A DNA stretch of 32,000 nucleotides, from NCBI RefSeq assembly GCF_000039765.1, contig NC_004460.2, forward strand, positions 1,440,001 through 1,472,000. The letters run 5' to 3'. This stretch comes from Vibrio vulnificus CMCP6 (GTDB lineage: Bacteria; Pseudomonadota; Gammaproteobacteria; Enterobacterales; Vibrionaceae). Both the position numbers and the translations under genes were made by a program. The notes under the pieces are model-generated. The model did no database searches. It was not told where the DNA came from and worked only from the letters and a program-made list of their open reading frames with translations. Positions 2,083 through 29,650 of the stretch are shown here, in pieces (the first letter of the stretch is position 1; each line of letters opens with the position of its first letter).

Positions 2083-3081
2083 TTAAAGGCGAGAATCATC
2101 AAGGCCGACGAAATTCTCAGCAGGCTGCGCTTGGCACCAGTCCCACGCTTTTTTCGAAATGTCGTACATCCCTTTCTCCGTATGGGCAAATTGCCAATCC
2201 TTTAAGCTGATTTCAACAATCTTCTCATCGATCTTATCGAGGAAGGTGCCGCTGGAAGCATGGTACATCTCACGTAATGCTTGCTGATTTTGCTCATCGG
2301 TAATGCCGTACGCTTCAGGTTGATGCTTCACCGCACCAATGCTTTCCGCCGATAAGGTCACGTCTTTGATCATATTGGCGCAAATGGCCCATTGTGATTC
2401 CTTTGCTGAGGCCAACTCAGGCGGAAGGTGGTCAAAGCTCGGTGTCATACCTAGCCACGGTTCATCTAGGCCAGTGGGTAGGTTGTGGGGGGCATGCTCT
2501 TTCAGCGGAGCGAGTTTCTTATTCATTTTACGCACTTCATTGGTCGCCAACTCCCATTCACGCTGCGAGCGATCCGCTTCTGCTTGCTCGAGTGGTTCCA
2601 TCTCTGCATAGAGATCTTGAAGCTGCTTCTCTAGTGCTTCGATCTTATTCCAGTGCGCGTCGGAATCGTCATTGCGGCTATTCAACTCATCTAGCTCAGC
2701 TTGCAACTTCTCTTCTTTTTCTTTCAGTGCGTAATAACGCTCTTCGTCATCGTCGCCATACTGATCGATACAAGCTTCTAGGCGTGCGTCCGTCACCCCA
2801 AGCACTGATTTCACGCCATTGGTGTAGCAAAGCTCATATTGGCTCTCATCTCCCCTCATGCACTTATTCATAAACTTGCGAAAGCCTTGAATAATGGTGG
2901 CTTCCGATTTGCCACTACAAGCCGCAAATTGGGTAAATGCGCCAGAGTCTTTCATCCAAGCGATTTGTGTATTGATGCCCAGTTCGATCTGGTTTTCGGT
3001 GAGTTTGATAGCCTGAGTTGGCATCGCCAATGTCATCGTAGAAACGGCCAACAGCGCGCGAGAAATCGTAGAAAATTGCAT
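2083..3081 (-). CDS. Secreted/periplasmic protein of unknown function with an acidic coiled-coil centre
   Basis: It has a signal peptide MQFSTISRALLAVSTMTLAMPTQA, several Cys residues in the mature part, and a central acidic heptad-like stretch (EKEEKLQAELDELNSRNDDSD...LEKQLQDLYAEMEPLE). I recognise no family. Confidence 0.65.
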   Translation of the reverse strand: MQFSTISRALLAVSTMTLAMPTQAIKLTENQIELGINTQIAWMKDSGAFTQFAACSGKSEATIIQGFRKFMNKCMRGDESQYELCYTNGVKSVLGVTDARLEACIDQYGDDDEERYYALKEKEEKLQAELDELNSRNDDSDAHWNKIEALEKQLQDLYAEMEPLEQAEADRSQREWELATNEVRKMNKKLAPLKEHAPHNLPTGLDEPWLGMTPSFDHLPPELASAKESQWAICANMIKDVTLSAESIGAVKHQPEAYGITDEQNQQALREMYHASSGTFLDKIDEKIVEISLKDWQFAHTEKGMYDISKKAWDWCQAQPAENFVGLDDSRL

Positions 3082-3505
3082 GGTATACCTCGAAGGGTGT
3101 TACACCCATTTGATGTCCTTATTCGGTCACATCGCACCCATAAAAACGGCACAAAATGTAACCCATTTATTTTGTGGTAGATAATGACAGCCTTGTACAA
3201 AGTTTCAACAGCTAAAGCATAAAGAAAGCAGCAAGATCACAGAGTTGAGATTGATGGGAGTAATGGGATGGTGTGTTGATAGGAGGGAACAGGTTAGGAG
3301 GAAGAGAGGATGTTAGATCAAAATTAACTTATGCCCTAAATCATAGATAATCAGGAAAAGAACCAATCTGAAGTAGTTCGTAACTTGTGTCGGCACATAA
3401 CACTGATTAACTCACACTTTATGCATATAATTGTCGCTAGAATAATAGCTAAATAAGTATAAACGTATATATTAGTTTCATAACTGTTTAGGTAGGATGT
3501 GGTAA

Positions 3506-5035
3506 ATGGAAACAATCTCGTTAATATACTTATTTTCTTTCGCTTTAGTTATTTTATTTATTATTTTTCTCTTTTTAGTTAGGAGGTCTATAAAATTAGG
3601 TGGGAAATTAGAAATTACAAGAACTCAATTGTTAGTGGCAGAAGAGGAAGTTGAAAAGTATAGAGAGAAATATGCCAAGGTCATAGACATTGAAACTGAA
3701 TGTGAGCAAATAAAAAAACAACTAGAATCAGATAAGAAGGAAATTGAAGATAAGGAACGCAAAACACTACACGAAATAGAACTAAAGAGAGATGAAGCGA
3801 TTACGAACCGTCAATTAGCAGAACAACAAATCAGAGACTTAAAGAGCGACTACATAACTAAGAAAGCTACCTATGACTCTTTGACTCGTCAAATCGCAAT
3901 TTTTAGTGAGGACATTGAACTTATTGAACTGGGTTTTTATGAACCAAAATTCGATTTTGATGCATCCGAAGTATTCAAAGAAGAAATAATTAAATGTAAG
4001 GAAATTCAGAAGAGTTTGTTAAAGAATAATAATTCTTCTTCTGGTGCGATTTATTGTAGTCGAGAATGGACGGTGGATGGTTCTCGAAGTGAAGGAAAGA
4101 AAATGACGCACAAGAGTATTCGCCTTACCGCTAGAGCTTTCAATAATGAGTGTGAAGCAGCGATTGCCAATTGTACGTGGAAAAACGTAACAAAGATGGA
4201 AGAACGCATAAAGAAAGCTTTTATTGCAATAAATAAACTAAATGAGTCGAATGCGATATATATAACTGAGCTTTATCTCATGGAAAAATTAAAAGAGCTC
4301 CAGCTAACTTATGAGTATCGAGAAAAGAAGCAACGTGAAAAAGAAGAACAGGCAGAAATTAAAGCACAGATGCGTGAAGAGGCAAAAGTAGAAGCTGAAA
4401 TTAAAAAAGCTGAAGAAGAGGCCATTAAAGAAGAAAAACGTTATCACAAAGCACTAGAAGCAGCTAGAAAAGAGCTAGAGAAAGCGAGTGATGAACTCAA
4501 AGCAGAATTAGAAAAACAAATTGTGCATTTACAGGCAAACTTAGAAGAAGCTGAGAAAAAACATCAACGCGCACAATCAATGGCGGAGCAAACTAAACAG
4601 GGGCATGTTTACATAATTTCGAACATAGGTTCATTTGGAGATGATGTTTACAAAATAGGCATGACTCGCCGTTTGGAACCAATGGATAGGGTTAGAGAGC
4701 TTGGGGATGCTTCTGTGCCATTTACATTTGATGTACATGCAATGATTCATACTGATGATGCTCCGATGCTAGAGAAGAAACTCCACGATAGGTTTGATGG
4801 TCAGCGTTTAAATATGATTAACCGTCGAAAAGAGTTTTTTGGTGTCTCGTTGGAAGAAATAAAATGTGCGGTTAATGACTTTACTGGACAATCTGTGGAG
4901 TTCATTGAAACAGCAGTCGCACAGGATTACTACGAAACACAGGCTATGAACAAACAGCGACTTGCTCGAGAGGGAAAATTGAACCAAGAGTTACCGCGAT
5001 CTAACTCTTTACCCCAATTCGCTGATGTTTTGTAG
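3506..5035 (+). CDS. Membrane-anchored DUF4041 + T5orf172 (GIY-YIG-superfamily) nuclease-like protein; putative anti-phage effector
   Basis: N-terminal TM helix (ISLIYLFSFALVILFIIFLFLV), then coiled coil. The DUF4041-like core is residues ~115-280 (LGFYEPKFDFD...WTVDGSRSEGKKM...RAFNNECEAAI). A K/E-rich coiled coil follows. The C-terminal T5orf172 motifs are at nt 4601-4870 (GHVYIISN...VYKIGMTRR...RVRELG...RRKEFF). AGGA lies 9 nt before the ATG. The gene is much more AT-rich than its flanks. Confidence 0.85.
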   Translation: METISLIYLFSFALVILFIIFLFLVRRSIKLGGKLEITRTQLLVAEEEVEKYREKYAKVIDIETECEQIKKQLESDKKEIEDKERKTLHEIELKRDEAITNRQLAEQQIRDLKSDYITKKATYDSLTRQIAIFSEDIELIELGFYEPKFDFDASEVFKEEIIKCKEIQKSLLKNNNSSSGAIYCSREWTVDGSRSEGKKMTHKSIRLTARAFNNECEAAIANCTWKNVTKMEERIKKAFIAINKLNESNAIYITELYLMEKLKELQLTYEYREKKQREKEEQAEIKAQMREEAKVEAEIKKAEEEAIKEEKRYHKALEAARKELEKASDELKAELEKQIVHLQANLEEAEKKHQRAQSMAEQTKQGHVYIISNIGSFGDDVYKIGMTRRLEPMDRVRELGDASVPFTFDVHAMIHTDDAPMLEKKLHDRFDGQRLNMINRRKEFFGVSLEEIKCAVNDFTGQSVEFIETAVAQDYYETQAMNKQRLAREGKLNQELPRSNSLPQFADVL

Positions 5036-5076
5036 AAAACAGTATCCAATAGACATAAAGAACTGATTCAGCAAAA

Positions 5077-5108
5077 AACGCCACTCCCCGAGTGGCGTTT
5101 CACTTCTT
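5077..5108 (+). terminator. Probable rho-independent terminator
   Basis: AACGCCACTC-ccc-GAGTGGCGTT (10-bp stem) followed by TTCACTTCTT, 42 nt after the stop at 5035. The U-tract is interrupted. Confidence 0.6.
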
Positions 5109-5272: not shown

Positions 5273-6189
5273 ATGGCAAAGCGAATACTTTTTATTCATG
5301 GCCGAGCGCCGAAACCAGACAAAAACGATTTACAAACATTGTGGTTCGACGCCATTCAACATGGCTTATTACGAGATTACGGCGAAAGCCGTGTTCAGGC
5401 GTTTAAGCAGATAGAAAAGCGATTTATCTACTATGGCGATCTTTCAAACGAGCTGCTCGACGCGCCAACCGAAGATCCGCAAAGTCGTATTGATGCGCTG
5501 AAAAAACTCAAGCAATACCCACGCAATGGCTTCACCAAAAAGAACTACAAGAAGGTCTCAAAAGCGGGTTTCTTAGCGGAAGCCTTGGCAGACACATTCT
5601 CGGCGGTATTGGGCCATTTAAAACTGGCAGAGCCGCTGATCACCAGTGTCGCCCCCGATATGGCGCATTACTGGAATGAAGACAGTTATTACGGCAGTGA
5701 CTTGCGTTCGCGACTGACCAAAGATCTGAAAGAAGCACTTGATAGTGGGATGAGGTCATGATGGTCGCGCACAGCTTGGGCAGCATGATCAGTTACGATT
5801 GTTTGTGGAAGCTCTCTCATTACGGCGAATATCGCCACGACTACGGCGCTGAAAAGAAAGTCGATCTCTTAGTCACTTTAGGTTCGCCGCTGGGGGATGA
5901 AAACGTGAAGGCGCGTTTGAAAGGCAGCAGCTTAAGCGGTAAAAAACGCTACCCACTTAACATTGACCAGTGGTGCAATATTTCAGCGGAAGACGATTAC
6001 ATTTCTCACGATAATCGCATCAAAAACGATTTCAAAGAGATGCTGCAACTAGGCTTAGTCAAAGGCGGGATGAAAGACATTTACCCCATCTACAATTTGT
6101 GTGTGAGAGATGGGCAGTCCAACCCTCATTCTGCGATTGGTTATTTGGTTCATCCGAAGTTCGTTACCGTGCTGAACCAGTGGATGTAG
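5273..6189 (+). pseudogene. Alpha/beta-hydrolase (lipase/esterase-like) gene interrupted by a 1-nt frameshift at ~5747-5750
   Basis: A strong SD (AGGAGG at 5262-5267) precedes ORF 5273-5761. ORF 5758-6189 begins directly with the strand plus nucleophile elbow MMVAHSLGS, and its frame is open back to 5746 (WDEVMMVAHSLGS). Adding one G to the GGG run restores ...EALDSGDEVMMVAHSLGS. Candidate Asp (AEDDY) and His (NPHSAIGY) of a triad lie in the second half. Confidence 0.7.
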
Positions 6190-19583: not shown

Positions 19584-22721
<3,138 letters not shown>

Positions 22722-22772
22722 CTACGGAGTTTGAGTCCGAAGCGAGGGTGTCTTTGCTTTTGTTGTGAAGCG

Positions 22773-23648
22773 TTATTTTGCCAATTGCTTCACGAGATAA
22801 TCTTTTGCGTGGGTAAAGCCTTGCTCACCCGCTTGATTGGCAATTGCCGCCGCTTGTTTTACGTCGTTGTCTTTGAGCGCTGCATCGATTTGAACTTGGT
22901 ACAGTGTCCATTCGTCTTGTGCTTTAGGCGATGCAGCAGGGGATAACTCTGCTTTCGCGGTGTCGTTGGTTTGCGTGCCCAATTCCGCCAAAAGCGTTAA
23001 TACCGCGTTGTTGTCGGAGGCACTCGCCGTGACATCAATAACGCCAAAAGGTTGGAACTGCGCTGTGAGCGGAAGCTGTTTATTGCCAATGACGTTTTGC
23101 CTTTCTGCATAAACTTCTTTTGGGTGCTTGCGAGTCAATTCCATGCCAAGCATTGTCGAATCTGAAGCGATGACCACGTATTTCGCGCCATTAAGTGGTG
23201 GGTTCACCGTGATCACTTGTTCAACACGCTCTAAGCCGCGCATGCCCGTTGTGTGGTAGTTAAAGTCTTTCGCCGAATAATCCGATAGAAGCTGCCATTT
23301 CGCGTCGTAAATCATGATATTCGCAGCAAATAACGAATTGTTGTCAACATAAGAGCGAACGAGCAGTGAAAATGGCACGTCAGAAGTGATTTGGTAGCTC
23401 ATCACTGGAAGCGGTTGGGATGAAGCAGAATCTGAAGAAAGTAAAACCGCACTACTCAAGCTTGGCAGATTTGCATCCATAACCACCTGTTGGTGGAAAG
23501 GAATCGATAGGGCGGTCAGAGGCAAAGTATCTAACGTCGAGCAACATTGCGGATGGCTCAAATCGGTATTGAAAGTTTGCTCTGGTAATCCACTACACGC
23601 GCTAAGAGACAGAGCCATGAATAGAGTTGCTAGCGGTTTTAGTTTCAT
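22773..23648 (-). CDS. MalM-like periplasmic protein, here with a lipoprotein signal
   Basis: It lies directly downstream of a LamB-type porin, as malM does in E. coli. The C-terminal helical tail (IDAALKDNDVKQAAAIANQAGEQG) resembles the MalM tail as I recall it. It has a lipobox LSLSAC. I start at ATG 23648 (MKLKPL...). Confidence 0.65.
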   Translation of the reverse strand: MKLKPLATLFMALSLSACSGLPEQTFNTDLSHPQCCSTLDTLPLTALSIPFHQQVVMDANLPSLSSAVLLSSDSASSQPLPVMSYQITSDVPFSLLVRSYVDNNSLFAANIMIYDAKWQLLSDYSAKDFNYHTTGMRGLERVEQVITVNPPLNGAKYVVIASDSTMLGMELTRKHPKEVYAERQNVIGNKQLPLTAQFQPFGVIDVTASASDNNAVLTLLAELGTQTNDTAKAELSPAASPKAQDEWTLYQVQIDAALKDNDVKQAAAIANQAGEQGFTHAKDYLVKQLAK

Positions 23649-23664
23649 CTGCGTTGTCCTTTGT

Positions 23665-23687
23665 GGGGTGAGCGAGTTACTCACCCC
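23665..23687 (-). other. Intercistronic hairpin between the porin and malM-like genes
   Basis: GGGGTGAG-cgagtta-CTCACCCC, an 8-bp stem with no U-tract. It lies just upstream of the malM-like RBS (AAGGA). Confidence 0.45.
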
Positions 23688-23717
23688 GTTGGGTTCAAAA
23701 ATAGTTGCGGGATTGGG

Positions 23718-24959
23718 TTACCACCATGTTTCGACGTTGAAGCCAAAGGTGATTTCGTCAATGCTTTGTCCACCAGTGCTGCGAGCATGGCCGTAGACTT
23801 CGCCGCCACGGTTCCACTCGTCGGTTTTCTCTGAGTAGGTCGCGAACAAGCGCAGTGATGGACGAGCCCAAACGCCTTTGCCAGCTTGGAACATTTGCGC
23901 CACAGTCACTTTGTACATGTCGTTGGTACCAGCGCCGTTTTGTGCTTCTACTGATTCGTAGCCAACTTCAAGTGCGGTGGCCATGTAATCTGTCCAGCTG
24001 TACTGAGGACGAGCGCCTACACTGAACCATTTCTCACCTTCGTTGTTGTCCAGGTTTTTGTTTTGGTAAGCGATGGAGTACATCACTTGGAAATCTTCAT
24101 TCACGTTAAGATCGCCAGAGTTGAAGAGACGCCAGCTGTAACCATCGTGCTCTACGCCTGTGTTGTATTTACGGTTTGAGCCACCTTCAGCACTCATCAA
24201 ACCGCCTGCAAGCGCATCCGTACCGTATTGGAAAGCGAATGTGTTTGAACCATAGTTCCAAGCTTGACTGTAAAGTGCCGAAAGCATGGCACCAGAAGTG
24301 GTGATGTCACTGTCGTCATAGCTAGAGTTTTGCGTGAACACGTAGTTCAAACCGACCGTAAGGTCTGCACTGTCACTCAGTTCAATGCCGCTTAAACGTG
24401 CGTCGATGTTGTGTAAGCTGCGGCCATCTGCGCTGGAGTTTGGCGCCATCCATGCGATGTGACCTTTAGCAAAACCAAGATCCCAGTTTTCAATACCGAT
24501 ACCTGTGCTCGATGTATCCCAGTATTTAATGTCGATCATGTGCACTTCATGACGACGGTAAAAACGTTCGCCCGCCCAAACAGTGGCATCCGCTTGGTCT
24601 TCAAACAGGCCGTGACCCGCTGACCACATTTGGATCACGCTAACGTCACCCCAGCTTTCACCGCTACCAAGGTAAAGGGTGGTATCAAAGTACGCTTCAC
24701 CTTGTTGCCAAACATCAGCTTTCAAGCCTGCTTCCCACCAGTTCAGTTCGTTACCCAAACGGTAGTTACCATAACCTTGACCAGCACGAATTACATCGTT
24801 GCGTTCGCCTTTGCCACCATTGTGTTCATCGTTATCGGTGTAAATGTTGCCCCACTTGGCGTAGCCAAAGTAAGTGATGTTCTCCACTGCAGCCATACCA
24901 GCAATCGGTGCTAGGGCGAGGGTGAACCCAAGCGCTCTGACAAGCGTCTTTTGTTTCAT
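23718..24959 (-). CDS. LamB/maltoporin-family sugar-specific outer-membrane porin
   Basis: It has a signal peptide MKQKTLVRALGFTLALAPIAGMA and LamB family motifs (YRLGNE, WAGERFYRRHEVHMIDIKYWD), and ends in ...FGFNVETWW like LamB (..EIWW). Confidence 0.85.
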   Translation of the reverse strand: MKQKTLVRALGFTLALAPIAGMAAVENITYFGYAKWGNIYTDNDEHNGGKGERNDVIRAGQGYGNYRLGNELNWWEAGLKADVWQQGEAYFDTTLYLGSGESWGDVSVIQMWSAGHGLFEDQADATVWAGERFYRRHEVHMIDIKYWDTSSTGIGIENWDLGFAKGHIAWMAPNSSADGRSLHNIDARLSGIELSDSADLTVGLNYVFTQNSSYDDSDITTSGAMLSALYSQAWNYGSNTFAFQYGTDALAGGLMSAEGGSNRKYNTGVEHDGYSWRLFNSGDLNVNEDFQVMYSIAYQNKNLDNNEGEKWFSVGARPQYSWTDYMATALEVGYESVEAQNGAGTNDMYKVTVAQMFQAGKGVWARPSLRLFATYSEKTDEWNRGGEVYGHARSTGGQSIDEITFGFNVETWW

Positions 24960-25038
24960 GAAGTGTCTCCATTCTATTTTTATGGATTTATTTTTTATTG
25001 GTTTGAGTCCTAACTCGCTGCGCAGTGTAAATAAACTA

Positions 25039-25055
25039 TGGAAACGTTTTCATGA
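25039..25055. promoter_or_regulatory. GalR/GalS-type operator upstream of the porin operon
   Basis: TGGAAACGTTTTCA (plus TGA), centred ~86 nt upstream of the porin ATG. The 17-mer is identical to 25704-25720. Confidence 0.6.
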
Positions 25056-25703
25056 TGAGCTTGGCATTTTTGTCGTAATGAGGGGGTAATTACCATTTTG
25101 TGTGATTTTGATCTCTTAAATTGAGGTTTCAAGCGCGATTTCAGATTGATTTTAAACCATGCAGGTTGGGAGCGTTTACTTTGACTGGCGGAGTTTGGGT
25201 TGGGGTATTGGAGTTGATGTTGTTTAAGATGCTGATTTAAATTGGCTTTTAGCTAAGGAAAGGCAGTTGTTAGGAAGAAGAGGAAAGAGCGCCCAATTGA
25301 AATCAACTGGGCATGTGAGACAAGGAAGCACATACACCAAGTGGTTCGCGGGCGCACTGCACACGAGCATTTGCTGTATCGTCAAACTGGGATTTTGAGT
25401 TAGGACCCAAGAGAGACACTTCATAAAGAATCTCGAAGCCTCAAGAATACGGTTGTCGGCTAACCACTTCAAGAGGTGAGGAGTTTAACTGAATGGTCTG
25501 TAACCTTATTTATGATTTTGTTGTTGTAAGGCAATGAATTGAATGGTGAAAAAGTCCTTATAAATCAACTTTGTATTTGAGTTTTTGTGCAGGGCTTTAA
25601 AGAATTCAGTAACCAAAGAATCTGAAGTGTTTTGGCGCTGATCGCTGCGTAATATAAGAAGGAATATAGCGTAGCGGGCGATGGCACAAGTTTGAAAAAT
25701 GGC

Positions 25704-25720
25704 TGGAAACGTTTTCATGA
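25704..25720. promoter_or_regulatory. GalR/GalS-type operator upstream of the alpha-galactosidase gene
   Basis: TGGAAACGTTTTCA (plus TGA), centred ~83 nt upstream of ATG 25793. Confidence 0.6.
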
Positions 25721-25792
25721 TTTTGCAGTGGCTCACAGATTATTTTGTCCGTTTCATTATGATGCGGCGTAATTTCTCGTTTTTAGGTAAGC

Positions 25793-27913
25793 ATGATGAC
25801 GAACAAAACAGTGATTGAGTTAAGTGGTCGGGAAACTCAGTTGATGGTCGAGCTCGGCGAATACGCGGAGATTCTGCACTGGGGAAACAAGGTTCAGGGG
25901 GAGCTTGAAAGCGCTCGCGTTGCACTGCATCGTCCGGTGCCATATGGTCGCCTTGATACTGATGTTGCGATGACACTGCATCCTGAGCTTGGCCGCGGTG
26001 TGTTCAGTAGCCCCGGTGTGGAAGGGCATCGTGAAGGACAAGATTGGGCACCCGTGTTTGTCATCTCCCATGTTGAACACGGCCAAGGTTCCATCGTGAT
26101 TCAAAGCGAAGATGCGATCGCGGGCCTTCGCCTGACAACAGAGCTGACTCTGGATCAGCATGATGTGGTCAAAACGCGCCACACACTCACCAACATTGAA
26201 GCGGGCCTATACCAAGTGAACCGCTTGGCGAACACTTTGCCTTTGCCTGCCCGTGCGAACGAGTTGATGACCTATTACGGGCGCTGGGTTCACGAGTTTC
26301 AAACCGTGCGTCAACCTTTGCTTCAAGGGGGCTACCAACAAGAGAACCGCCGTGGACGCACTTCCCATGAACATTATCCCGCATTGGTTGCTGGCAGCGC
26401 GCATTTTGACGAAATGAGTGGCGATGTATGGGGATTCCATTTCGCATGGAGTGGCAATCACAGACTGCGTGTGGACGTGAAAGCTGACGGTCGCCGTTAT
26501 ATGCAAGCGGAGGTGATCTATCTTCCAGGTGAAGTGGCACTGAAAGAGGGCGAAAGCCTGACTACGCCGTGGTTGTACGCAAGTTACAGCTGCTCGGGTC
26601 TTAACGGCATGAGCCACCATTTCCACTCACACGTCCGTGATTCGATTTTGCCTGAGGATTTTGCGAACAAGCCTCGTCCGATCCACCTTAATACGTGGGA
26701 AGGCATCTACTTCGATCACGATCCAGAGTACATCATGTCAATGGTAACCCAATCGGCGGAGATGGGCGTTGAACGCTTTATCATTGATGACGGTTGGTTC
26801 AAAGGGCGCAATGGCGACAAAGCCGGGCTAGGGGACTGGTTCTTATGTGAAACCAAGTATCCGAATGGTTTGCAACCGATCGTCGAGCACGTCAACAAAC
26901 TGGGTATGGAGTTTGGTTTGTGGTTCGAACCAGAGATGATCAACAAAGATTCAGATTTGTATCGCACGCATCCTGATTGGTTATTGGCCGTTGAGGGTTA
27001 CGACCAGCCAACCGGTCGCAACCAGTATGTGATTAACCTGCAAAACGATGATGCGTTTAACTTCCTGTTTGAGCGGTTGGACCATTTCCTCTCGACTTAC
27101 AACATCGCTTACATCAAATGGGACATGAACCGTGAAGTGGTGCAGCCAGCGCATTTAGGCCAAGCGGCAGCGCACAATCAAACCCAACGTTACTACCAGT
27201 TAGTCGATAAAGTTCGTGAAAAGCACCCGAACGTCGAGATTGAATCTTGCGCGGCGGGCGGTGGCCGTATCGATTTTGAGGTACTGAAACGTACGCATCG
27301 ATTCTGGGCGTCAGACAACAATGACGCACTTGAGCGTCAAACCATTCAACGCGGCATGAGCTATTTTTTCCCGCCAGAGGTGATGGGCAGCCATATTGGT
27401 GCCAGCCATTGTCACAGCACGCGCCGTCGCCATAGCATCGAGTTCCGCGGGCTTACGGCACTGTTCGGCCATATGGGGATTGAGCTTGATCCTGTGAAAG
27501 AAGAGCAAGCGGAAAAAGAAGGTTTTGAGCGCTATATCAAGCTGCACAAAATGCTGCGGCCACTGCTGCACAGCGGCAGAACTTGGCGTGTACCAACCGA
27601 TGATAAAGCACATCAAATTCACGCGGTGGTGGCAAACGATCAATCGCAAGCGGTGGTGATGATTGCTCAGCTAGCGATGCCGACGAACTCTCTAAGTGGG
27701 CATTTGCGCATACCGGGTTTAGATCCACAAGCGATATATCGAGTGACGGTATTGGATAAACCGTCTAACTACGATGACATCGTGAATTACCAGCCGCCAT
27801 GGACTGAATCGGGCTGTGAACTGTCTGGCGCATGGTGTGAAGAAGTTGGCTTAACCATGCCAATTCTTGATGCAGAAAGTGCGATGTTGGTGACGTTCGA
27901 ACGTATTCACTAA
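25793..27913 (+). CDS. Alpha-galactosidase (GH36, RafA/AgaA-like)
   Basis: 706 aa with GH36 signatures (IDDGWF, YIKWDMNR, ESCAAGGGRID, WASDNNDALER). Confidence 0.9.
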   Translation: MMTNKTVIELSGRETQLMVELGEYAEILHWGNKVQGELESARVALHRPVPYGRLDTDVAMTLHPELGRGVFSSPGVEGHREGQDWAPVFVISHVEHGQGSIVIQSEDAIAGLRLTTELTLDQHDVVKTRHTLTNIEAGLYQVNRLANTLPLPARANELMTYYGRWVHEFQTVRQPLLQGGYQQENRRGRTSHEHYPALVAGSAHFDEMSGDVWGFHFAWSGNHRLRVDVKADGRRYMQAEVIYLPGEVALKEGESLTTPWLYASYSCSGLNGMSHHFHSHVRDSILPEDFANKPRPIHLNTWEGIYFDHDPEYIMSMVTQSAEMGVERFIIDDGWFKGRNGDKAGLGDWFLCETKYPNGLQPIVEHVNKLGMEFGLWFEPEMINKDSDLYRTHPDWLLAVEGYDQPTGRNQYVINLQNDDAFNFLFERLDHFLSTYNIAYIKWDMNREVVQPAHLGQAAAHNQTQRYYQLVDKVREKHPNVEIESCAAGGGRIDFEVLKRTHRFWASDNNDALERQTIQRGMSYFFPPEVMGSHIGASHCHSTRRRHSIEFRGLTALFGHMGIELDPVKEEQAEKEGFERYIKLHKMLRPLLHSGRTWRVPTDDKAHQIHAVVANDQSQAVVMIAQLAMPTNSLSGHLRIPGLDPQAIYRVTVLDKPSNYDDIVNYQPPWTESGCELSGAWCEEVGLTMPILDAESAMLVTFERIH

Positions 27914-27960
27914 GCCATTCCTATTTAGACGATTTTATCGTTTCTCATTGGTTTTCTATC

Positions 27961-27992
27961 GCCGTACAGACATCAGGTTTGTACGGCTTTTT
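27961..27992 (+). terminator. Rho-independent terminator after the alpha-galactosidase gene
   Basis: GCCGTACA-11 nt-TGTACGGC followed by TTTTT. Confidence 0.8.
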
Positions 27993-28015
27993 GCGTTGTT
28001 TTTTATTAGTGGGGG

Positions 28016-28029
28016 TGAAATCGTTTTCA
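28016..28029. promoter_or_regulatory. GalR/GalS-type operator (distal) upstream of melB
   Basis: TGAAATCGTTTTCA, with 6 of 7 symmetric positions. Confidence 0.55.
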
Positions 28030-28131
28030 TGCTTAACGAGCGTAAAGTGCTGATAAAATGGCGTAAATGACACAATCTCCTGGCATTAATAGGTCCAAAT
28101 ATTGTTCGATATCTCATTTTTAAAACTTGTC

Positions 28132-28145
28132 TGTAAACGTTTCCA
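28132..28145. promoter_or_regulatory. GalR/GalS-type operator (proximal) upstream of melB
   Basis: TGTAAACGTTTCCA differs at one position from the core of E. coli gal OE as I recall it (GTGTAAACGATTCCAC). Confidence 0.6.
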
Positions 28146-28276
28146 TAAAGCGGTTTTTGATCACAGTAAGGCATTCAGTGTGTGAGTAGCATTAGCATCG
28201 AAAACTAAATAAAAGACGTCGACGTTATGAATTCTAGTTAGGGGAATGAATAGCAGTACGACACTAAGGAATGATT

Positions 28277-29650
28277 ATGTCTGAAAAAATTACGCTACAA
28301 ACCAAACTGTCCTACGGTCTTGGTGCACTCGGTAAAGACTTTGCTTGTGCACCTATCTACATCTTCTTAATGTTCTACTTTACGGACGTGGCCGGCTTGT
28401 CTGCTGCTTTCGTGGGTACCATCTTCTTAGCCGCTCGTATTATCGATGCGATTACTGACCCAATGATGGGGGTGATCGTCGACAATACACGTTCTAAGTT
28501 CGGTAAGTTCCGTCCTTGGATTGTGATTGGCACGCTGTTAAATGCGATTGTCTTAGTTGGCCTTTTTAGTACGCACATGTTTGAAGGGACAACGCTTTAC
28601 ATCTACGCGGCCGCGGCTTACATCCTTTGGGGTTTAACTTACACCATTATGGATATTCCTTATTGGTCAATGATTCCTGCGCTATCAAGTTCTCGCCAAG
28701 AGCGCGAGAAGCTGGTGGTATGGCCACGTTTGTTCGCGAGCCTTGCATGGTTCATTACGGGGACTTACGGTCTGCACATTGTCGGCGAGCTGGGTAACGG
28801 CAACCAAGGCGACGGTTTCTTTAATGTTGCTATGTTGATTGCCGTTCTGTTTGTGATGAGCGCATTCTTGATTGCGCGTAACGTCAAAGAGAAAGCGGCG
28901 CCGGCAAACGCGAAACCCGCAGAGAAATTCAGCTTCAAAGATGTACTGACTATCATCGGTAAAAACGACCAGCTTAAAGCGCTAATCGGCACGGTTCTCT
29001 CTTTCCAAATTGCGAACCTATTGGTGGGTGGTTTTGCGATTTACTACTTCTCTTACGCGCTGGGTAACGCAGAGCTATTCCCAGTTTACATGGCGGTGGC
29101 AGGCGCGGCAGAAGTAGCGGGGGTGTTCTTGTTCCCTCGCATCGCTTCTCTACTACCACGTAAACTGCTGTGGCCTATCGCTTGTGGTTTCCCAATTCTA
29201 TCTTGTGTGCTTCTGCTACTGATGGGCTTTGTTGCGCCAGCTAACGCTCTGATGATTGGTATGGCGGGTGCGGCAATTAAGTTCGGTGTAGGTATCGCGA
29301 ACGCACTGCAAACGGTCATGCTGGCGGACGTTGTGGATTACGGTGAGCACAAAACCGGTCGTCGTAGCGAGAGTGTTATCTTCTCAGTACAAACCATGCT
29401 TGTGAAATTCGCAGGCGCAGCAGGTGGCTTCATTGTCGGTGTGGGCTTGTCGGTTGTCGGTTACGTCCCTAACGTAGAGCAATCGTCAAGCACCATCATG
29501 GGGCTTGAATTTATGATGATTGGTCTACCAGCCATCATGATGACCATCAGTGGTGTGATTTACCAACGCTACTACCATCTGCATGAAGGGTTTGATAAGT
29601 CTGCGGTTGAATCTGAGGTAAAAGGAACGGGTTCTTTGGCTCAAGCCTAA
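28277..29650 (+). CDS. melB: Melibiose:cation symporter (GPH family)
   Basis: Colinear with E. coli MelB as I recall it (KLSYGLGALGKDFA, DPMMGVIVDNTRSKFGKFRPW, MDIPYWSM, YVPNVEQS). ATG 28277 sits 6 nt after TAAGGA. ATG 28271 is the alternative start. Confidence 0.92.
   Translation: MSEKITLQTKLSYGLGALGKDFACAPIYIFLMFYFTDVAGLSAAFVGTIFLAARIIDAITDPMMGVIVDNTRSKFGKFRPWIVIGTLLNAIVLVGLFSTHMFEGTTLYIYAAAAYILWGLTYTIMDIPYWSMIPALSSSRQEREKLVVWPRLFASLAWFITGTYGLHIVGELGNGNQGDGFFNVAMLIAVLFVMSAFLIARNVKEKAAPANAKPAEKFSFKDVLTIIGKNDQLKALIGTVLSFQIANLLVGGFAIYYFSYALGNAELFPVYMAVAGAAEVAGVFLFPRIASLLPRKLLWPIACGFPILSCVLLLLMGFVAPANALMIGMAGAAIKFGVGIANALQTVMLADVVDYGEHKTGRRSESVIFSVQTMLVKFAGAAGGFIVGVGLSVVGYVPNVEQSSSTIMGLEFMMIGLPAIMMTISGVIYQRYYHLHEGFDKSAVESEVKGTGSLAQA

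Follow-up and report, generated by a model that had tools for sequence, protein, structure and literature searches.

A SNIPE (PD-lambda-1) homologue among the alternative defence cargoes of a Vibrio vulnificus slot

The 509-residue protein and its relation to E. coli SNIPE

The DNA analysed here is a stretch of 32,000 nucleotides from Vibrio vulnificus CMCP6 (contig NC_004460.2, positions 1,440,001 to 1,472,000), which is referred to as the window and within which all positions are numbered. Between two conserved genes it contains an AT-rich, strain-variable segment with a single open reading frame (ORF) of 509 amino acids, which begins with an ATG and occupies positions 3506..5035 of the forward strand. 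The encoded protein is a homologue of the anti-phage protein SNIPE, also known as PD-lambda-1. An earlier note on this DNA, made from the letters alone, had described this ORF and proposed it as a candidate phage-defence effector. The protein is 100% identical to a V. vulnificus entry named "DUF4041 domain-containing protein" at NCBI, and the same full-length ORF, without differences, is carried by at least 15 contigs of separate assemblies. Homologues of the protein number at least ~8000 at E < 1e-5.

Searches of Pfam and of the defence-system libraries returned significant DUF4041, MUG113 and PADLOC PD-Lambda-1 matches. The PD-Lambda-1 model PDLC03976 matched aa 4-496 of the protein over profile positions 4-487 of 491 (E = 1.5e-196), and a second PADLOC model, PDLC03977, matched with E = 1.5e-184. 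The DUF4041 core proposed in the earlier note was recovered as PF13250, a family that current Pfam labels "SNIPE" (60.7 bits against a gathering score of 27, E = 1.2e-16, aa 208-261). The proposed T5orf172/MUG113 nuclease was recovered by hmmscan as MUG113 (PF13455; 60.9 bits against a cut-off of 22.3, E = 1.8e-16, aa 382-458), whereas T5orf172 (PF10544) was absent from the hmmscan output and is listed solely in the annotation precomputed for the identical database entry; both families belong to the GIY-YIG clan of Pfam. NCBIfam assigned no family to the 509-aa protein. All of the motifs quoted previously were present in the order given, namely LGFYEP (aa 142), WTVDGS (188), RAFNNECE (210), GHVYIIS (366), YKIGMT (382), RVRELG (395) and RRKEFF (440). 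Judged by sequence, the protein is a member of the SNIPE/PD-lambda-1 family in which the architecture and the catalytic residues are conserved. The gene is a further member of a recently published family, and PADLOC-type tools would label it automatically.

Inspection of the polypeptide sequence revealed one strongly hydrophobic stretch, aa 4-25 (3515..3580, forward strand), in agreement with the single N-terminal transmembrane (TM) helix suggested before. The Kyte-Doolittle maximum over 19 residues was 3.1, no other segment exceeded 1.6, and the stretch is helical in the AlphaFold2 (AF2) model and is followed by RRSIKLGGK. An N-out, C-in topology is predicted from the positive-inside charge. 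The TM helix is followed, on the same strand, by a poorly conserved coiled-coil "adapter" (aa 26-125, 3581..3880; AF2 helices H2-57 and H62-132), which has a mean identity of 26% to 45 homologues, and by the DUF4041/SNIPE core (aa 126-261, 3881..4288), within which the Pfam match covers aa 208-261 and the predicted local distance difference test score (pLDDT) is 86-95. A K/E-rich linker helix (aa 262-360, 4289..4585; AF2 helices H255-326 and H329-364) then leads to the GIY-YIG-type (MUG113/T5orf172) nuclease domain (aa 361-470, 4586..4915; PF13455). The AF2 model, which was built from 45 sequences and has a mean pLDDT of 76, is elongated and helical overall, with an N-terminal helix running into two long helices, a confident DUF4041 core, a helix of ~110 residues and a C-terminal beta-beta-alpha-beta-alpha domain. 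A Foldseek search of the full-length model against the PDB gave coiled-coil noise only, and a profile search of PDB sequences gave nothing for DUF4041 or the nuclease, the coiled-coil matches obtained having E > 0.1.

At three other loci (L009, L010 and L039) the protein is annotated as 466 aa starting from a GTG (V44), by which the TM helix is cut off. This "466-aa SNIPE" was rejected as a distinct allele, the DNA being 100% identical to the window and the shorter call an annotation artefact that hides the membrane anchor.

Within the nuclease domain, G366, H367, Y369, K383, G385, R388, R389, R395, E398, H411, E423, H427, N439, R441 and E443 were invariant in 46 homologues. Of the catalytic residues put forward in the earlier note, Y369 and R389 are among these, whereas its "R392" is in fact P392, the invariant arginines there being R388, R389 and R395. 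In the E444 region named there, E443 of the KEFF motif is invariant; the catalytic E414 of SNIPE, whose role was tested by experiment, aligns with E423 (nt 4772-4774), which is itself invariant in the 46 homologues. When the isolated domain (aa 355-509; pLDDT 68, predicted template modelling score 0.64) was compared with the PDB by Foldseek, the GIY-YIG nucleases Slx1 and At-HIGLE made up 8 of the 12 top matches. Because the best E value of this fold match was only 0.27, the nuclease assignment rests on sequence-family evidence.

GIY-YIG domains are common in homing endonucleases, and several database homologues of the protein are named "chromosome segregation ATPase" or "ParA", with weak NCBIfam coiled-coil matches to an SMC-related model. 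It is nevertheless very improbable that the gene encodes a selfish GIY-YIG homing-type endonuclease or a misannotated SMC/ParA-like ATPase. The coiled-coil matches scored 13-15 bits against cut-offs of at least 300, no ATPase family was found in Pfam or NCBIfam, and the name "chromosome segregation ATPase" was rejected, as no ATPase domain was detected. Neither a TM anchor nor a coiled coil of 350 aa is characteristic of homing endonucleases, and Pfam detected no recognizable homing-endonuclease DNA-binding module in the 509-aa protein. The gene also lies outside any intron, intein or phage gene, in a slot that alternates with unrelated defence systems and for which no empty-versus-occupied homing site was seen.

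PD-lambda-1 was discovered in E. coli ECOR26 (RCP76574.1, 500 aa; Vassallo et al. 2022, PMC9519451) and received the name SNIPE in a later study (Saxton et al., Nature 2026, PMC13190303), which contains the proposal mentioned in the earlier note of a membrane nuclease that cuts phage DNA at injection. SNIPE has an inner-membrane anchor with a periplasmic N-terminus and a cytoplasmic DUF4041 domain and GIY-YIG nuclease, a topology that was shown experimentally. It associates with ManYZ and the tape measure protein, targets siphoviruses and cuts lambda DNA during injection; DNA binding and contact with the tape measure protein are both functions of its DUF4041 domain (PMC13190303). Defence requires E414 and DUF4041 and is direct and non-abortive, with cell survival at high multiplicity of infection (MOI), and a variant lacking the TM helix is highly toxic (PMC13190303). 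Across the family, in which 59% of members have one TM helix, the nuclease is conserved, DUF4041 is moderately so and the N-terminus is hypervariable, and the N-terminal adapter region has been proposed to set partner and phage specificity (PMC13190303).

The reference used for comparison was the 500-aa product of an E. coli prophage coding sequence (CDS) on the plasmid record CP061260.1. This CDS was used because it has all nine published residues (E223, N250, L253, W257, E264, K305, I308, T319 and E414) and matches the "PD-lambda-1" CDS of the ECOR26 prophage PhiR26_1 (RCP76574.1/XSB42081.1) at 500 of 500 residues. The window protein was found to be collinear with the reference (509 vs 500 aa) and 53.2% identical overall. 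Identity was 17.6% over the TM helix and adapter (aa 1-125), 56% over the pre-DUF core (aa 126-205), 77% over DUF4041 as delimited by Pfam (aa 206-261), 61% over the linker helix (aa 262-360), 74% over the nuclease (aa 361-470) and 26% over the C-terminal tail (aa 471-509), a distribution that matches the published family pattern of conserved nuclease, moderately conserved DUF4041 and hypervariable N-terminus. Like SNIPE, the window gene is a single gene whose product has the order TM helix, coiled coil, DUF4041, helix and GIY-YIG domain and a predicted N-out, C-in topology. Unlike SNIPE, whose gene lies between ren and the nin region of a lambdoid prophage, it occupies a core-gene-flanked chromosomal hotspot of a Vibrio.

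In lambdoid prophages, the authentic E. coli SNIPE gene is flanked by ren on one side and a Rha/YbcN-side module on the other (L001:3878-5380; L027:2378-3880). An E. coli record of 280 kb, deposited as plasmid DNA, contains an identical copy together with lambda O/P/ren genes, and homologues occur on many Klebsiella phage-plasmids and on Salmonella phage ES18.

A strain-variable segment in a defence hotspot

The G+C content of the segment 3289-5074 is 35.8%, compared with 49.9 +/- 3.1% for stretches of the same size elsewhere in the window (n = 1067, minimum 41.0%; z = -4.6). When measured over 300 nt, the G+C fraction was 0.28-0.41 over ~3150-5100 and 0.45-0.55 in the flanks, which bears out the value of about one half reported earlier for the flanking DNA. 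The G+C fraction at third codon positions (GC3) was 0.31 for the 509-aa ORF and 0.51-0.64 for neighbouring genes. Boundaries were mapped by blastn against 25 V. vulnificus loci. On the left, homology to loci with other contents stops at 3256-3288, the common block ending at 3278, in a G-rich stretch, for most of them; on the right, homology restarts at 5074-5083. The breakpoints of the exchangeable segment, here termed the cargo, are confined to ~30 nt on either side. Thus the low G+C content of the islet previously drawn at 3180-5108 was confirmed, whereas its extent was not, the foreign segment delimited by the blastn breakpoints being ~3279-5074. This cargo of ~1.8 kb (~36% G+C) comprises the SNIPE gene together with a leader and a 3' untranslated region of its own.

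The cargo segment is foreign in origin. Its horizontal acquisition, which had been suggested previously, is shown by the sharp homology breakpoints together with the presence of other defence cargoes in the same slot of other strains. A search for repeats around the cargo revealed short repeats at chance level only, none of them, direct or inverted, credible as the mark of a mobile element, and no integrase or transposase Pfam families were present among the called genes within +/- 8 kb of the slot. As neither an integrase nor flanking repeats accompany the cargo, its gain and replacement have most likely proceeded via homologous recombination in the conserved flanks.

Upstream of the SNIPE gene the intergenic region measures 424 nt, consistent with the AT-rich leader of ~420 nt described before, but only the last ~225 nt are derived from the cargo. 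The first ~200 nt (3082-3278, 41.6% G+C) belong to the conserved flank, and the blastn junction and the composition delimit a cargo-specific, AT-rich leader at 3279..3505 (forward strand, ~33% G+C). A Shine-Dalgarno sequence, AGGA, lies at 3494-3497, 8 nt upstream of the ATG start. At 3324-3351 there is a sigma-70-like match, TTAACT-16-GATAAT, which is a match to consensus only, the region containing 8 such sites where 5.7 are expected. No RNA families were found when the whole window was scanned with Rfam, and therefore no riboswitch or small RNA in the leader.

The left junction (3251-3278) carries the G-rich block GATTGATGGGAGTAATGGGATGGTGTGTTG, and several cargoes continue with further degenerate G-rich sequence. 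A Chi-like reading of this block was considered and dropped as unsupported.

At the right junction a hairpin with an 11-bp stem, AAACGCCACUC-CCC-GAGUGGCGUUU, is located at 5076..5100 of the forward strand (-16.8 kcal/mol, z = -4.0). It was found with every cargo type, its left arm being partly replaced in L018 and L022, and it was missed by a simple terminator scan, yet its fold is strong. The hairpin is a probable terminator by which the core gene downstream, encoding 305 aa when intact, would be insulated.

The slot was sampled by exact-protein look-ups of SNIPE and three flanking proteins, from which 86 contigs were read, and by one cross-species scan. Many V. vulnificus assemblies share the flank order DUF2955, TacA/TacT, 332-aa gene, slot, 305-aa gene, RluA-like, GAF-GGDEF and RND efflux system. 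In the slot itself, 10 or more types of cargo were observed (the window plus L009-L026, L028 and L039-L044). Nine of these match defence models in PADLOC or NCBIfam, the assignment of SIR2-HerA being from Pfam domains only. No empty slot was seen among the 86 contigs or in the cross-species scan, and in more distant Vibrio species the 305-aa gene lies in a different neighbourhood. In the comparison of related genomes that the earlier note had suggested, the flanks are conserved and 3279-5074 is replaced by other cargoes, the segment being neither universal nor native in composition.

The 509-aa SNIPE is the cargo of the window, L002-L008 and L021. A second SNIPE lineage of 480 aa, with its own N-terminal TM helix, occupies the slot in L011, L014, L017 (12064-13506) and L020 (PD-Lambda-1, E = 5.6e-179). 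The two lineages share slot, orientation and family and are 46% identical over aa 126-478, whereas their N-termini are unalignable; at the DNA level, 224 nt could be aligned, at 75%. Directly upstream of the 480-aa SNIPE, at L017:13510-13824 and also in L011 and L014, is an ORF of 104 aa that starts with TTG and whose product is highly basic and rich in R, Q and E. This ORF is uncalled in L020 despite the same allele and could be either an accessory gene or a spurious call.

The other cargoes are unrelated defence systems or candidates. A type II-A retron (RT and NDT, E = 1.6e-105 and 7.5e-58) is present in L019, type I Hachiman (HamB and HamA, E = 2.1e-290 and 1.9e-113) in L024, the SIR2 and HerA pair in L041 and L043, and an 883-aa SIR2-TPR protein in L026. 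DS-1, one of the DS systems that originate from DefensePredictor, was found in L018 and L023 as a nucleoid-associated anti-phage protein with its partner (NCBIfam scores of 350 bits against a cut-off of 330, and 307 against 315). L025 carries a CARF6-like gene with genes for an ORC/CDC6-like ATPase and a metallophosphoesterase, and the V. floridensis locus L028 carries a Septu-like PtuA/PDC-M01 pair. The only cargo that lacks a recognized defence model is a set of three co-oriented genes at L022:12259-15914, encoding 347, 332 and 535 aa. Its 535-aa protein combines a calcineurin-like phosphoesterase domain at the N-terminus with a weakly phosphoribosyltransferase-like C-terminus and shows weak similarity to PDC-S60 and DS9_1; by position alone the set is a candidate for a new anti-phage system. 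L043 contains SIR2-HerA although its RluA-like allele is exactly that of the window and its downstream gene has the same frameshift, which suggests a recent cargo swap.

Taken at the level of the loci sampled, the slot is a hotspot at which defence systems are swapped. It is probably located on chromosome II, with which the size of the contigs that carry the identical protein (up to 1.79 Mb) agrees. Core-gene-flanked hotspots have already been established in P. aeruginosa, as core defence hotspots (cDHS; PMC10250203), and in the E. coli defence island repertoire (PMC10121019), and at the insertion "Spot 15" of V. europaeus Gabija and a type II retron alternate with PD-Lambda-1 (PMC12824646). 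The present slot resembles these in its conserved flanks, sharp junctions and mutually exclusive defence cargoes without a dedicated integrase. It differs from them in being very compact (1.8-4.4 kb, with one system at once) and in having a conserved hairpin at one junction. No description of the V. vulnificus/V. floridensis slot was found in the searchable literature, and, tentatively, it may represent a compact, one-system-at-a-time hotspot common to the two species that is uncatalogued there.

Proposed function and competing explanations

The gene is proposed, with a probability of about 0.8 and by analogy with the characterized protein, to encode a functional SNIPE orthologue, that is, a single-protein, direct (non-abortive) anti-phage system that acts like its E. 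coli counterpart. The N-terminal TM helix would anchor the protein in the inner membrane, leaving a very short periplasmic N-terminus, and the remainder would form an elongated cytoplasmic coiled coil bearing DUF4041 and the C-terminal GIY-YIG-type nuclease. Anchored in this way, the nuclease, which cuts non-specifically, would be prevented from reaching the chromosome. During genome injection by a tailed phage, most probably a siphovirus, DUF4041 would engage both the incoming DNA and the tape-measure-protein complex at the site of injection, and the nuclease would then shred the DNA on entry. Membrane localization, cleavage during injection and tape-measure recognition are carried over in this scheme from the work on the E. 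coli protein.

Several points weigh against this proposal. Phenotype, localization and substrate would all be extrapolated from an E. coli protein that is 53% identical. The N-terminal 125 aa, which correspond to the adapter proposed to associate with ManYZ in SNIPE, are only 17.6% identical, and partnership with ManYZ therefore cannot be assumed here. Specificity-related positions, comprising seven Bas14-enhancing sites in DUF4041 and the downstream helix and the crosslink site N250, differ from the E. coli protein in five of eight cases; at these tape-measure-tuning positions N250 is replaced by M259, W257 by Q266, K305 by H314, I308 by L317 and T319 by S328. The structural match to GIY-YIG nucleases was non-significant (best E = 0.27) and confidence in the nuclease model was moderate (pLDDT 68). 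Finally, expression from the AT-rich leader is hypothetical, and the promoter match at 3324-3351, being at chance level, is a suggestion only.

Retron II-A, SIR2-HerA and Septu-like systems are generally described as abortive, and their occurrence in the same slot is consistent with the SNIPE homologue being an abortive-infection or toxic effector, in which the tethered nuclease is released or activated after infection, host and phage DNA are both destroyed and the cell dies. The diverged N-terminus could alter regulation of the protein, the nuclease is non-specific and the E. coli variant without its TM helix is highly toxic (PMC13190303). Such a mode of action is nonetheless quite unlikely: the characterized SNIPE provides direct defence with survival at high MOI and cuts during injection (PMC13190303), the architecture and catalytic core are conserved in the window protein, and its sequence contains no sign of a release mechanism.

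AT-rich foreign DNA is a typical target of H-NS. The very low G+C content of the cargo (36%, GC3 0.31) fits a recent acquisition, the promoter signal is non-significant and the adjacent core gene has decayed in this lineage, all of which could be accommodated if the gene were an intact but silent or irrelevant passenger, xenogeneically silenced or directed against phages never encountered by V. vulnificus, and kept only on account of its recent arrival. This explanation is considered quite unlikely in view of the full-length ORF, identical on at least 15 contigs from different assemblies, and of the retention of all catalytic and structural invariants. Moreover, in other strains the slot keeps the second SNIPE lineage (46% identical) in intact form as well, a point in favour of selection on SNIPE function.

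Zorya, Kiwa and prophage superinfection-exclusion proteins also act at the membrane, at or near the step of genome entry. These consist of several proteins or have no nuclease, and they are not known to be related in sequence to SNIPE, a single polypeptide that unites anchor, sensor surface and nuclease. Taken alone, the window gene is confirmatory, extending self/non-self discrimination by cutting at the injection site to a human-pathogenic Vibrio. If the proposed function is correct, the two SNIPE lineages, with their unrelated N-terminal adapters, could target different Vibrio phages via different inner-membrane injection routes and would provide a natural allelic pair for mapping SNIPE specificity outside E. 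coli without ManYZ being assumed. The two natural alleles and the diverged adapter make phage choice by SNIPE testable in a second host. Typing of the slot by strain (SNIPE, Hachiman, retron, SIR2-HerA or DS-1) should aid the prediction of phage host range and phage therapy or biocontrol of V. vulnificus, and the hotspot offers one uncharacterized three-gene candidate system, that of L022.

Flanking genes and the wider window

The left flank of the slot is formed by a conserved core gene of 332 aa at 2083..3081, on the reverse strand and thus divergent from the slot, which adjoins the slot in all loci, including that of V. floridensis. No Pfam family above cut-off was found for its product. 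The conserved right-flank gene, at 5273..6189 on the forward strand as judged by alignment to an intact allele, encodes 305 aa when intact. In the window a deletion of 1 nt near 5749 divides it into parts of 162 and 143 aa; it is intact in L002, L004 and L017-L026 and broken otherwise (190 + 94 aa) in other strains. As the breaks differ across strains and many alleles are intact, inactivation of the gene appears to have taken place in more than one independent event. The 305-aa product contains an ILFIHG...AHSLGS motif and is alpha/beta-hydrolase-looking, but no Pfam family was assigned to it.

A second, independent presence/absence cassette lies at 1175-1989 (indel ~987-2006) and consists of genes for a TacA-like antitoxin (96 aa, PF08681) and a GNAT toxin-like protein (182 aa); the pair is absent in L019, L020 and L024. 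In V. floridensis, the interval between the 305-aa and RluA-like genes, which measures only ~170 nt in V. vulnificus, contains inserted genes for a LysE-type exporter and a regulator of the AraC family (L028:9053-10472).

Farther along the window, a sugar-utilization cluster occupies 19584-29650. It comprises a GH2 beta-galactosidase gene (19584-22682), a MalM-like gene (22773-23684) and a LamB-family maltoporin gene (23718-24959) on the reverse strand, and genes for a GH36 melibiase (25793-27913) and an MFS_2 transporter (28271-29650) on the forward strand. LamB is the lambda receptor in E. coli, and its position ~19 kb from the SNIPE gene is probably a coincidence.

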